A stretch of 63,456 nucleotides of DNA, filler included, from Reclinomonas americana ATCC 50394 (GCA_048213135.1; 6 parts of 2 records of this genome joined end to end with filler, not necessarily neighbours in it); one strand, 5' to 3'. Counted from the whole stretch's first letter, positions 103 through 62,147 are shown. Numbers and translations: made by a program. Notes: a model not told the origin generated them from the sequence alone.

Positions 103-1579
103 CTTCAAGGGCAGTGGCGAGGACTCGGTTGTTCTCTGCCTGCGCAGTCGCACATTCGAGGTCAAGGAGGTACATGCACGTTGATCAGTCTCTCCTCCTC
201 AATGCGTGCTACTGATTGTGTGGTCCAAGGTGGAGACGTCAAACACGCTGCTGTTTGTGTCGCCCGAGTCGGTGCAAGCAAGTGGATTCGATGTGATTCA
301 ACCGGAAGCTGACGCAACGGTTGGTGTGGCGTCACTGTCTGTCTCGCCCGCTCTCTTGTGACTCTGACGAGTGCGCAGCTGACGGTGAGCTTCTCGGCGG
401 GATCGTACTTGGAGCTGGTGGCCGCACTGCCACGGTTGCATCAGCTGCGGGAGTTGCTGCAGCGTGCGGCGTTTGCGGGCGAGGAGTCGGAGGTCGATGA
501 GGATGGGCAGCCGAGACCACTCGGCCACTCGTTGGAGGAGCTGGAGGATCGCGTGCAGGCCAGTCGTGATGAGATTCTGAGAGGGCTGCACGAGTTCCGA
601 GCGTTCAAGGTCAATGGTGAGGCCGCTCCCTTTCCCTCTCGCTCTCTCTTTGTCTCCTTCTCATCACTTGAGCACCTGCAGGCAAGTACCGCGTCTTTGA
701 GAGTGAGCATCTGGCCACCGTGTTCGACACGATTCTGGCCGACATTCTCGCCGCCAGTGGTGACATTGAGCGAGTGCGCTTGTCGGTGCTTCGTCTCGCC
801 ATCCCCGACATGAGCGACATTGATCTGGCCAACTGTCTCTACGTGTACGGCACTCCACACGATGCGGCGATCCAGTTGTTGCGTACTACGAAAGATGTGC
901 TGCTGCAGTCCTTTTGTACTCACGCGCCTCGTGTCACTGCAGCGACGAGGACTTTGATGCCACGAAGGTCGAGCTGTGGAAACTCGATCGGCGACTCATC
1001 TGTCGGCACAGAGCACTCGAGTTTCTCACTCTGCACGAGGTTGGCTCGCTGTCTCTCTGCTTCTCTTTGCCTTCCCTGTCACTCGTTTGCTCACTGCGCA
1101 CAGTCGTGGGGTCTCGAAGAGTTCATGCAAGTGTGGTCGGAGCAGATGCCCAGCTCGTGGAGAATACAACCGTCGTTGGACATGATTGCTGTTGCGTCGC
1201 GCATGGGTGCTTGGCTGGTGGCGATTCTCTTTCATCTCACCCCCTCATCAGGACATGATGGTGGTGATCACGCAAGGCCTGGACACGTACGTGCGATATG
1301 TGGACTCGGCGCAATTGCCGGTGACACTGAAGGCGCGCGTACGGCACCTCTTTGGCTTGAAGCCCAAGTGGAAGCTGGCCGAGTTGACCCCGTTTGTAAG
1401 GTGCGTGTGTGTGTCGCTGCACATGTCCTTCTGTCTTTTTCGTCCCGACCCACCCCAATCTTCCCGACCACAGAGAGCTCATTCCACCCAGTGTCAAGGT
1501 GGAGGAGAGCTTGCGCCCATTCGTTCGCATCCATGCCGACGAAGCCGACCCATCGCTGCTGTGGTTTACGTTGCGGTAA
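103..1579 (+). CDS. DCC1: Sister chromatid cohesion protein DCC1 (5'-partial, multi-exon)
   Basis: Spliced translation FKGSGEDSVVLCLRSRTFEVKE|VETSNTLL...LEELEDRVQASRDEILRGL...WGLEEFMQVW...LPVTLKARVRHLFGLKPKWKLAELTPFV matches recalled DCC1 motifs. Introns are GT-AG; stop TAA at 1577-1579. Confidence 0.85.
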
Positions 1580-1631
1580 AATATATGCTGATTCCTGTTT
1601 TTTCTGTATTACATGCCACCCACGCCGTTTG

Positions 1632-3548
1632 TCACCTTCGTCGCCGCATGCCGTCGTCACTGCTGTGAGTGCTGTTGTTGTGGCCGCCTCTACTCGTACT
1701 GCCGCTACGCAGTGATTGCAATGGTGGTGGTGGCGATGGTCGCCGCTGCTGGTGTTGCATGTCGGCGTCGTCGTCTCGCTTGAGGAGTGACGGGTTCCAC
1801 TGGACGCGCCACTCATCGACACACAGCTGCACTCGGCTCGTGTCCCACCCGGAAGCCGCCACGGCCTCGATGAAATCGTCCACCATGGCGCGATTCTCAA
1901 ACGCCTCGTCGGCAAACAGCTCGCCCTCTAGCGCGAATCGACGCAACAAGGCGTGCGTGTACGCCCGCAAATGGTCCAATGGCGTGGTGCCCTCCTCAAA
2001 CACCACGTATGCTGTCGGACCGCTCATGTCCACGGAGAGGAGCCAGCGGTGCTCCCGTGCCACACTTTCGCGCAGGCGATCCACGGTCAGGCGCACGCAG
2101 TACAGCGGCACACCGAGGTGGATGCGGAACGCAGACTCGTGCACGGCATCCCACCACCAAACGCTCTCGACTTTGGCCAACTCCGCCGGACGGGAGAGTG
2201 CCTTGCGTCGGCGGCTGCCGATGAACTCGCGCAGCAGCAGGGTGACGCGCTGGCGATTCAGCGATTCCAGCTGCCGTCAGCAAAAAGTCAGCAAAGGGGA
2301 AAGGGAGCAGGAGGTGCCTGTGGGACAGCACGATACGGCGCACCTGCAACACGCGAACCGCGCGGTAGTTGCAGAACAGATGCATCGCGACGAGTGCAAG
2401 AAACACCGCCCAACAAATCGCCGCGCTTTTCACAATGGCCGGCGTGACCAGTAGACCAACAGCGGAACCCACGAGTCCGACAGCAATCTCCTGTGAGCCA
2501 TCCTTGGCGCTCACCTACAAGCCACAAGCGGCATTAGACGATTCTCTTTCTCTCTTTCGCGCGCGCGAGCGTGTGGGTGATGGAGATGTTGCAATTATAG
2601 CGTACAGCGGACACAAAGCCCCACCACCAACGCAACATCGGCCATATTATGCGCGCGAGCCTGGTGTTGTGTGATGGCCGCGCGAGTGGCACCCCCCGCC
2701 ACATCGGTGACCGCCCGCACCAGCGCCGCCAGGCAAGTGCACGCGAAAAACCTGTGTTCGGAAAGAATCACCAAAGATGGACACACATGCATACGGGGGA
2801 AGGGCCACACACGGACCATGTTCTCCGTCCTTCGAAGAGCGCCCCACCCGCCAGCTCCACCAACATTGCCACATCGCACGCGATATCCGCCACCAACCGC
2901 CACGTTTTTGGGTTGGCGTCGAGGCCCGCCGACTGCACCCACCCAAACCAAATCTTCCCAATGCGTGAACAGCCGTCGCTGACAATCCACGACAAGGTGA
3001 CCGCCAAAGGCGTGCTGCTGGCGTCGCCCACGCCCACTCCTTTCAGCATCGCGTGTGTCGACAGAATGCCCGCCAGACAACTGCACAACGCCTGCATCGT
3101 GTCCCACTGCGGCGATATGCAAGTTAGAGTGAGCAAGAGGAGGAGGAAGTGGACATCGTCAGCCACGTCGTGTGCATGTGCGCGCCCCCCTCACCAACTG
3201 GTACTGCAAGTAGTCTGGAGACACGGAGTTGGGGAAGCCCGCTGGCAAGAAGCACGAGGCCACAAAGGCGGCCAGACGAGTGCGTGGGCGATCGAGCGAC
3301 GAGTGTTGGCGATCGGGTTGCACGCTGTGTGCGGGGAAGAGAGAGATGGGAGAGAGAGAGAGAAGGAGGGAGGAGAGCGTGGTGAGATCGGTTGGGCATG
3401 TCGCCAACGAGAACCGAGGCAACGTGTGTGTGAGTGCGTGTGTCAGTGAGTGTGTTTGTGTGCGCAACATCCGGTTGTCGGCCACAGCATAAGATCGTGT
3501 GTGGTGGGTAAGTGGCGATCGTTCACTGGCAACCACGTTTGCGTCCAT
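1632..3548 (-). CDS. RUS1: RUS1 family protein (root UVB sensitive, DUF647 / C16orf58-like)
   Basis: FLPAGFPNSVSPDYLQYQL|WDTMQALCS...GVGVG...LDANPKTWRLVAD...AGGATRAAITQHQARAHNMAD|VSAKDGSQE...HLFCNYRAVR...LNRQR are diagnostic RUS1 motifs; 5 introns modelled. Confidence 0.92.
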
Positions 3549-3884
3549 TGTGCAGGTCACGCACTCGCGCGTCACACAGAGTGAAAAAAGGAGAGCGCAG
3601 CTGCGCACACGCACACGACACTCAAAAAAGAACGAAACCGCAATTCCTCGACTCGAGGCAACTAGTTGATTTTTCCCTTTTCCTTCCACGCATGTGCGGG
3701 AATTGGAGTTGCCGCTCGAGGTGAGTGGTTATGCAATGCTGCGTCGAACACGAGACCACACCAGTTCCTTTTATACTCTCTCTCTCTCTCGCTTTCTTGC
3801 GTCTCCTCGCCACATCGACGAACTTTGAAAACACATCATCATCAAACAAACAGTACAAAAACACAACACGAACACCACACACAA

Positions 3885-60593: not shown

Positions 60594-60668
60594 ACGACGA
60601 AGAAACAAACGAAGAGAACACGACCACTCTACTCGTACACAGCAACATGAAGTAATAACAATACACCA

Positions 60669-61191
60669 TCATCTCCTCGCCGGCTCAAAGAGTCCCACCA
60701 TTTGCCCACACGGAGCACGAATGGCAGCCACCTGCATGCACAAACTACTGATAAGCGATACAGATGAGATGCCCAGTTGCCGCGCTCCCCCCTCCCGACC
60801 TTTCCATGATCCGGATGCTTGATGGGCCCATCCAGCACGCCACCATGCTGCAGAGCGGCGACCACCACCTTGTCGAGATCGCTCACATGCAACTTGAGAA
60901 ACGGCGAGTAGCCGTACGACAATTGCGATTCACTGTCGCCACGAGTGAGCACGCACACACGCACACACACACACACACACTCTCATGCTCACACCTTGCG
61001 CTCACTTGCAGCTCGACTACAGGTTGCATGTCGATCTCATCCTCTTCTCCTCCCTCTTCCGATGAAGACAACTGTGCCCATTGATCGGTCTGGCCCGTGA
61101 CGCGCAGGCCAAGTCCACGCGAGAAGAAGGCCACATGTGGCTCCAGAGGCGCGCGAACGAGCAAGAGGAGACTGTGCACACGCGACGCCAT
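60669..61191 (-). CDS. VOC / glyoxalase-like family protein
   Basis: VAFFSRGLGLRV...WAQL...GYSPFLKLHVSDLDKVV..ALQHGGVLDGPIKHPDHGK|VAAIRAPCGQMVGLFEP; 2 introns. Confidence 0.85.
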
Positions 61192-61284
61192 CGATTGAGT
61201 GGACAGTGGACAGACGCCGCTCGCGCTCCGGCATCTGTCCACTTTCACACACTCGCACGCACACAGTCAACATCGCCGTTCGCC

Positions 61285-62147
61285 ATGGTGAACGCGTTTA
61301 TGATGTTGCGTTTGTGTTGTGTTGGAGGAGGAAGAGAGGAAGAGAGCGTGATGCATGCACGCGCGTGTGCGCTTGTGTTTGTGTGTTGGAAATTGCGCGC
61401 TGTTTGTGTTTGAAACTCACACACACACTCTCTCTGCTCTTGCTCGTGCGCGCAGTGTGACCACCATTGTGGGAGTGAGTGGCTTCTTGCTGTCTCTGCG
61501 TGCGTGTGTGTGTGTGCACTCAACTCACACTCACACACGCGCATGTGCAACGTTAGGTCATTCTGATCCTGCTGGTGTCGGTCTACTTCCTCGTCTTCTT
61601 CAGCGCCGATGAGGACAAGAACATGGCGTGGTTACCAAAGGGCATTGTCGTTGCGTGCAATCACACTGAGAGAGAAAGAGATGGGGAAGAGAGAATTGAG
61701 AGGAGCACGCAATCACTTGTGTCGTTCTCTCTGCTCGTGTGTGCGTTGTGCAGAGTGTGTGTGTGTGTGCATGTGAGAGAGAATGTATATATATGCTCTC
61801 TTGATTGTCGCCTTCGCGTCAATGTGACACATTCTATTTATTTCGTCTGTGAGCTCGTGAACTGGCGCGCGCGCATCAGTTGCCAGAGTGTGTGTGTGTG
61901 TGTGTGCGTGCGTGTGTGTGTGTGTGTGTGTGCTTGTTCGTGTGTGTGTGAGTGTATGCACTCGCGTGTTGTGTTGTGTGGTAGTCGCATCAGTTGCCCT
62001 CTCTCTGTCATCTCACTCTCCCATCTTCTTCTCCCACAGATCATAGGATTGTCATTCGCCGCTTTCCTCGTCCTGGTGTTGCCACTCGATGTGGCCAATC
62101 GGTCCGTAAACGGCGGCTATAATATGCCGGCCTTGTGGCAGTTCTTG
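61285..62147 (+). CDS. LMBR1-like (LIMR family) membrane protein, 5' exons
   Basis: MVNAFMI|VTTIVG|VILILLVSVYFLVFFSADEDKNMAWLPKGIV|IIGLSFAAFLVLVLPLDVANR...LWQFL. Confidence 0.88.

Follow-up and report, generated by a model that had tools for sequence, protein, structure and literature searches.

A putative displaced 5′ splice-site class that avoids an exon-end G in nuclear DNA of Reclinomonas americana

Introduction

How is a 5′ splice site (donor) read when its consensus lies one base too far into the intron? This question is raised by the window analysed here, a stretch of 63,456 bases of eukaryotic nuclear DNA from Reclinomonas americana ATCC 50394 (G+C ∼55%, 19 runs of N), in which many introns appear to start with GTTGCGT in place of GTGCGT. 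A sequence-only reading of the window had claimed that 28 such shifted donors never follow an exon-end G (T12, A10, C6), that most ordinary GTGCGT and GTGAGT donors do follow G, and that the first intron base, G+1, takes over the role of the missing exonic G−1. Based on predicted introns, we find that N/GTTGCGT, with the rarer GTTTCGT and GTTACGT (together GTTNCGT), is a genuine and abundant 5′ splice-site class that is cut at GT. Here and below, a slash marks the exon/intron boundary and a sign after a coordinate gives the strand. In full-text literature searches for the motif in introns and for shifted or bulged registers, no account of an abundant donor class with an extra T, or of its rule for the exon end, was found. 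We propose that these donors may be recognised in a register displaced by one base.

Results

GTTNCGT sites are used as donors in the predicted introns

GTTGCGT occurs 32 times on the two strands of the window, compared with a mean of 11.47 in 100 dinucleotide-preserving shuffles (largest count 20; 0/100 reach 32). Introns were predicted with a purpose-written Viterbi gene finder that combines three-periodic coding emissions, intron composition, a branch and acceptor model and a prior on intron length. Its donor model sees intron positions +3 to +9 only, and the exon's last base is unused. The finder was seeded by Pfam-supported frames and retrained four times; a noisy motif-plus-branch bootstrap set was used only for starting the training, and an earlier run without signals had been too conservative (22 genes). 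The converged set contains 33 genes and 141 introns, 113 of which are ≤150 nucleotides (nt) and are referred to as short. Least credible are the 28 introns >150 nt and, upstream of the WD40 genes, the small predicted 'genes' at 45.6-53.3 kilobases (kb).

The gene finder uses 21 of the 32 GTTGCGT copies as donors, and the 11 left over are close to the chance expectation of 11.5. Four further donors read GTTTCGT (13323+, 23926-, 29815-) or GTTACGT (28825-). The GTTNCGT class thereby reaches 25 of the 141 predicted introns overall and 21 of the 113 short ones (17 GTTGCGT, three GTTTCGT and one GTTACGT). A donor-blind rerun, in which only GT was required, predicted 152 introns, 89 of them identical to the first set. 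It picked 14 of the 32 GTTGCGT copies, compared with 152 of 7878 GT sites overall (binomial; P = 3e-16), and GTTGCGT was its commonest donor 7-mer.

That cleavage stays at GT, as had been claimed from the sequence, agrees with the reading frames and protein domains of the predicted genes. For 19 of the 21 short GTTNCGT introns, the frame is kept open only if the intron is removed. Cleavage one base later (NG/TT) was rejected, since stops then close the next-exon frame in 12 of the 21. At 2636- in the RUS gene, the match of the upstream exon to PF04884 stops at profile position 164 and that of the following exon begins at 165/166, and the exons around the intron that starts at 1191+ in the Dcc1 gene meet at ∼270/272 of PF09724. 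These results also bear on the possibility that the class is an artefact of the gene models, or that GTTGCGT is another signal lying merely near exon ends. The introns are indeed predicted, and doubt attaches to the long ones and to the genes at 45.6-53.3 kb; however, the raw motif shows the same exon-end rule (one G in 32), the donor-blind run recovers the class, frames are restored in 19 of 21 introns, and domain matches run on across two junctions. We therefore regard an artefact as highly improbable.

Two other origins were considered and rejected. Firstly, an all-against-all blastn of 117 predicted introns of ≤200 nt (24 of them GTTNCGT) gave 63 match pairs, none of which joins two GTTNCGT introns; the matches were simple repeats or tandem paralogues. 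With no similarity among them, the GTTNCGT introns are not copies of a mobile, introner-like intron. Secondly, U12-type introns have the donor RTATCCTT and a branch of TCCTTAAC type. These motifs do not fit, because the donors in question read GTTGCGT and their branches are CTCAC, as in the other introns.

Predicted introns are short (median ∼65-70 nt) and carry a CTCAC-like motif 10-30 nt upstream of YAG. In most cases this branch-like motif reads CTCAC, often ACTCAC, and not CTAAC or CTGAC, for example in the introns at 12916-12989, 14429-14493 and 58797-58853, and C fills its third position in 64% of the bootstrap set, where a match to CT[CGA]A[CT] was obligatory. The preference might reflect a changed U2 branch-binding sequence. 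A literature search for CTCAC branch sites gave nothing relevant.

The exon-end base differs between the two donor classes

The base before the 32 GTTGCGT copies is T in 14, A in nine, C in eight and G in one; before the 21 copies used as predicted donors it is A in eight, C in five, T in eight and never G. The 25 GTTNCGT donors, long introns included, follow T (10), A (9) or C (6), again without a G. Adding three donors that read GTTGCGA or GTTGCGC (3468-, 18321-, 19750-) brings the set to 28 (T11, A11, C6, G0), and the claimed absence of G from 28 shifted donors is thus reproduced on the predicted introns. The sole G-preceded copy, 46257+, was rejected as a true exception, as it would require a 4-nt exon, and the third copy of its repeat lacks the motif.

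Ordinary donors behave differently. Among short introns, an exon-end G precedes 37 of the 57 GTNNGT donors, including 14 of 20 N/GTGCGT donors (the same core without the extra T), 10 of 14 N/GTGAGT donors and 5 of 9 N/GTTNGT donors, which also start with GTT and have G and T at +5/+6. The corresponding figures for N/GTTNCGT are 0/21 in short introns and 0/25 with the long ones (Fisher's test against 0/21; GTNNGT, P = 5.2e-8; GTGCGT, P = 1e-6; GTTNGT, P = 9e-4). In agreement with the earlier reading, most ordinary GTGCGT and GTGAGT donors therefore follow G, and the contrast between the classes is robust. The unshifted donors without an exon-end G that this reading had named (30203-, 26808-, 44144+ and 61475+) are all predicted donors, and so is its possible exception, G/GTTTTGT at 25863-. 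In wider classes, G precedes the donors at 15963+ (GTGGCGT) and 52784+ (GTTGTGT, in a doubtful model), and 11402+ reads G/GTTGCGC within a weak gene.

A displaced register would place G+1 in the slot of the exon G

In GTTNCGT donors the consensus is displaced by one base: G and T lie at +6/+7, not +5/+6, and positions +4 to +8 mirror the ordinary +3 to +7. In composition, the base preceding the shifted 7-mer is close to canonical position −2 (chi-square; P = 0.16) and not to canonical −1 (P = 1e-6), on small numbers. Pairing should suffer when a further base separates GT from the core, and such a base would therefore be expected to be tolerated best together with an exon G, but the reverse is seen. 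The mutual exclusion of the extra T and the exon-end G speaks against a bulged U and also against simple compensation.

We propose the following mechanism. The intron would be cut in front of its GT, with a distance between the cut and the core, (G)CGT, that exceeds that in G/GTGCGT by one base. Both classes would then present the same 7-mer, G-K-T-G-C-G-T, in one fixed register of the 5′ splice-site recognition machinery, the most likely reader being the 5′ end of U1, a small nuclear RNA (snRNA). In the shifted class, the intron's first G would occupy the slot normally held by the last exon G. Since one slot holds one G only, an exon-end G and the extra T would exclude each other, and the shifted class would be used where the coding sequence disallows an exon-end G. 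We consider this one-base displaced register, with G+1 in the slot of exon G−1, the best explanation and give it a probability of roughly one half; the identity of the reader as U1, and a shift of the register as opposed to a bulge, are inferred.

A bulged U would displace the core in another way. In the 'bulge +2/+3' register, G+1 and a single U are paired to U1, the other U bulges and the core pairs one base later. The run of two Us would let either one bulge, and such a register (Roca et al. 2012) has been shown for human sites, according to the legend of Figure 1C in Tan et al. 2016 (PMC4856993). Like the donors described here, sites of this kind start with GUU and have their core displaced by one base, and the minimum-energy structures of GUUGAGU with a −1 G are of this kind. 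However, a bulge leaves C9 of U1 free for the exon's last base, so that G would be favoured there as in ordinary donors (65-70%), whereas 0/21 was found. This makes a bulged U distinctly improbable.

The energetics of the displaced register were examined with RNAduplex, using the standard 11-nt 5′ end of U1 given by Tan et al. 2016 (PMC4856993), which may not be that of the organism itself. Duplex energies were −0.6 to −1.7 kcal/mol for non-G/GUUGCGU, −2.2 to −2.8 kcal/mol for non-G/GUGCGU, −4.1 to −5.9 kcal/mol for G/GUUGCGU and −7.1 to −8.9 kcal/mol for G/GUGCGU. Several points weigh against a displaced register. With the standard U1 there is an energy cost to the extra U in every case, and the minimum-energy pairing of non-G/GUUGCGU is not shifted. 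Shifted pairing is the energy minimum only for GUUGAGU (−3.8 to −5.1 kcal/mol), yet GTTGAGT, the better shifted pairer, is used 0 times as a predicted donor (A at +5 in 0/29). The shifted register would also tolerate a −1 G as a G-U wobble, and so does not predict strict absence. Moreover, G precedes GTT in only 16.8% of cases in the window and 21% in exons, which gives a probability of ∼0.007-0.02 for 0/21, and every intron is a prediction of our own model on 63 kb. The claim that G+1 replaces the missing G−1 and that recognition slips by one base thus holds in part. The displaced core, the likeness of −1 to canonical −2 and the exclusion between T and G favour it, but the shifted register brought no energy gain over the canonical one, a provisional result given the U1 used, and GTTGAGT is absent.

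The low frequency of G before GTT (17-21%) is also the starting point of an explanation without any special mechanism, in which a perfect intron core relaxes the need for an exon G and the remainder is due to base composition and small numbers. In agreement, the four-base distribution before all 32 copies is not distinguished from the pre-GTT background (chi-square; P = 0.18), with T commonest in both. In 5′ splice sites, exon and intron compensate for each other, −1 G against +3 to +6, and donors with a perfect intron side can lack the exon G. Here, however, the perfect core in its normal place still follows G in 14/20, and only the displaced core excludes it. An insertion that merely weakened the site should be tolerated best, not worst, with a −1 G. 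Based on the frequency of G at the three codon positions (0.37, 0.21 and 0.36), 6.1 G would be expected in 21 donors and 7.2 in 25, whereas none was found (P = 7e-4 and 2e-4, respectively). An account without any special mechanism is thus improbable. G at −1 looks avoided, with a strictness that 63 kb does not settle.

These expectations also bear on the coding consequences. It had been suggested that the shifted donor frees the exon's last base from splicing constraint. Since no G was found where ∼6/21 were expected, the exon end is not freed; rather, the constraint shifts from 'prefer G' to 'not G'. At 18 of the 21 GTTNCGT sites a change of the −1 base to G would alter the amino acid, and similarly at 15 of the 20 ordinary donors that lack it. 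Phase-0 introns make up 6/21 of the GTTNCGT class compared with 32/57 of the ordinary donors (P = 0.04). That the class sits where the protein forbids an exon-end G is a tendency and no proof.

The donor core suggests a reader that favours GCG

Ordinary donors in the window also depart from the usual GTRAGT. Among the 57 GTNNGT donors, A is found at +3 in only one, C is commonest at +4 (24/57), with A there in 14/57, and G is commonest at +7 (31/57), giving the extended consensus G/GTGCGTG. At the shifted position equivalent to +4, C is present in 22/29 and A in 0/29. The rare A+3, the common C+4 and the absence of GTTGAGT suggest that the reader of the core favours GCG.

A reader of this kind could be an altered or additional snRNA. 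If the 5′ end of U1 differed, or a second U1 variant existed, the GTTNCGT class would be a fully paired target and not a slipped reading; the possibilities include complementarity to GCG at positions 4-6, or an A at position 8 pairing with the whole of GUUGCGU. The base preferences above, which the standard U1 fails to explain, favour such a change. Given G5 and C6, an invented U1 end binds non-G/GUUGCGU in the shifted register at −7.3 to −8.6 kcal/mol and GUUGAGU weakly, and adding A8 to it gives −11.4 to −12.9 kcal/mol for non-G/GUUGCGU. However, these variants are invented sequences, and Rfam gave 0 matches in the window. The G5C6 variant still prefers N/GUGCGU over N/GUUGCGU and leaves the exclusion of −1 G unexplained, and the A8 variant predicts no −1 rule at all. 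Also against this idea, GTGAGT (10/14) and GTGCGT (14/20) donors need the −1 G equally often, and the U1 5′ end is, to our knowledge, nearly invariant among eukaryotes. An altered snRNA in place of a slipped register therefore appears rather unlikely, although the same idea was raised for the GTGCGTG donors of Ostreococcus (Irimia and Roy 2008; PMC2483917).

Individual sites and gene content

The predicted GTTNCGT introns and related sites are listed in Table 1. One further copy, T/GTTGCGT at 16792+ in an RCC1-coding stretch, is probably a real donor overlooked by the gene model. In the Vps16-like gene, two candidate donors 4 nt apart overlap at 59184-59194+, namely G/GTGTGT at 59184, the model's choice, and T/GTTGCGT at 59188. 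On the minus strand at 22121-22245, outside the predicted genes, GTTGCGT occurs at 22245- (after T) and 22127- (after C), with a good branch and acceptor 72 and 111 nt on; these sites may belong to introns in an untranslated region or in a gene that the model overlooked.

Table 1. Predicted GTTNCGT introns and related sites, in window coordinates
Gene or context	Donor or motif	Coordinates	Strand	Length (nt)	Remarks
Dcc1-like gene	T/GTTGCGT	878..942	+	65	phase 2; CTCAC-type branch, CAG acceptor
Dcc1-like gene	T/GTTGCGT	1191..1251	+	61	phase 0; exons abut in PF09724
RUS/UVB_sens gene	T/GTTGCGT	2515..2636	-	122	phase 0; exons abut in PF04884
RhoGEF-PH-RCC1 gene	A/GTTGCGT	12916..12989	+	74	next exon open only in the N/GT-cut frame
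RhoGEF-PH-RCC1 gene	A/GTTTCGT	13323..13391	+	69	
RhoGEF-PH-RCC1 gene	C/GTTGCGT	13558..13625	+	68	
RCC1 repeats	A/GTTGCGT	14191..14272	+	82	
RCC1 repeats	A/GTTGCGT	14429..14493	+	65	
	C/GTTGCGT	18823..18899	-	77	
	A/GTTGCGT	19037..19166	-	130	
	T/GTTGCGT (donor at 21449)	21036..21449	-	414	predicted; acceptor uncertain; long introns least reliable
EGF/H-lectin gene	C/GTTTCGT	23860..23926	-	67	
	T/GTTGCGT	27480..27544	-	65	
	A/GTTGCGT	27797..27867	-	71	
Subtilase domain	T/GTTACGT	28763..28825	-	63	both flanking exons match PF00082, roughly contiguous
	T/GTTTCGT	29746..29815	-	70	
	C/GTTGCGT (donor at 31263)	31076..31263	-	188	predicted
	C/GTTGCGT	33747..33822	-	76	803-nt downstream exon open in expected frame only
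	T/GTTGCGT	38027..38101	-	75	
	A/GTTGCGT	41602..41668	-	67	
CCZ1/Intu-like gene	A/GTTGCGT (donor at 42855)	42855..43047	+	193	predicted; acceptor uncertain
Vps16-like gene	T/GTTGCGT	58797..58853	+	57	
	T/GTTGCGT (donor at 61305)	61305..61455	+	151	predicted
	C/GTTGCGT	61650..61753	+	104	
LMBR1-like gene	A/GTTGCGT	62885..62957	-	73	
Possible exception	G/GTTTTGT	25796..25863	-	68	phase 0; G at +6, T at +7, no CG core
Sole G-preceded GTTGCGT	G/GTTGCGT	46257..46263	+		not a predicted donor; in tandem repeat unit
RCC1-coding stretch	T/GTTGCGT	16792..16858	+		CTCAC-type branch, TAG 67 nt on

Pfam matches on long open frames identified Dcc1-like, RUS/UVB_sens and RhoGEF-PH-RCC1 genes, an RCC1-FYVE piece, a large subtilase/EGF/H-lectin gene, CCZ1/Intu-like, Vps16-like and LMBR1-like genes, and several tandem WD40 genes. 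Protein searches found no close relative; the best matches were at 48% (to one protein from EukProt and one from Dictyostelium purpureum) in one search and at 52% (to Salpingoeca rosetta) in another, and a third gave none. A search with Rfam at gathering thresholds gave no RNA genes, and thus no snRNA gene, within the window. The RhoGEF-PH-RCC1 gene (11996-16279+) and the RCC1-FYVE piece (17996-18507-), with N runs at 14996-15356 and 17382-17864 between, may together form a single gene in which one scaffold piece is wrongly oriented. At five places (18508-18607, 34164-34263, 41944-42043, 45000-45099 and 58155-58254) N runs are paired, each exactly 44 bases long with 12 bases between; these look like a masking or scaffolding convention and not ordinary gaps. 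A long open frame at 7935-10600+, which reaches an N gap, is of low complexity, rich in proline, alanine and glutamate, and lacks a Pfam match. Within 45100-54719+, tandem repeat units of ∼3.2 kb each carry a WD40 gene of seven blades (47736-48883 and 50914-52052, with partial copies at 45100-45549 and 54198-54719). Each unit has a conserved upstream stretch with several short intron-like segments, and the gene models for these upstream parts are doubtful.

Discussion

The closest parallel to the proposed displaced register is the +1 shifted register of human 5′ splice sites (Roca and Krainer 2009), as set out in Tan et al. 2016 (PMC4856993). As described there, the cut stays at GU, the consensus positions are all displaced downstream by one base, the exon ends in a base other than G (A in the shifted test oligo; ACA/GUCAAGUAUA) and the intron's G+1 faces the U1 base that normally meets G−1. 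All of these features match those seen or proposed here. The human +1 shifted sites are rare, in contrast to one motif in 15-19% of the introns predicted here. Proven bulge and asymmetric-loop registers are put in that paper at 3119, or 1.5%, of 201,541 human sites. The core also differs: GCGU is poorly paired by the standard U1, the AAGU/GAGU form is absent, and our sites are predictions only.

The unusual core itself has precedents. GTGCGT(G) is reported as the main donor consensus in Ostreococcus and Micromonas (PMC2483917, PMC3879977), with the same G+3 and C+4 as the main class in our window. The portions of those papers on which we draw mention no extra-T class. Those algae are intron-poor and have a CTGAC branch, whereas introns are plentiful in the window, measure ∼65 nt and mostly have CTCAC as their branch.

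A broader idea is that the genome as a whole uses a two-register donor code, in which an intron would carry its own 'exon G' by way of GTTGCGT wherever the codon cannot end in G. The code would be read by a re-tuned U1 or a second U1 variant, and a −1 G would be actively excluded as it would pull U1 into the wrong register. We consider this extension possible but doubtful. If true, it would uncouple splice-site strength from protein sequence. The GTTNCGT class would be mis-scored by gene finders whose training relied on one donor matrix. Noncanonical U1 registers are known mainly as rare human exceptions, whereas here about one in five predicted introns would use a displaced donor with a clean exon-end rule. 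If genome-wide, the class would offer a natural system for studying what determines the cut site independently of pairing with U1, how an additional base is accommodated by U6 and U5, and whether snRNA 5′ ends co-evolve with donor motifs.

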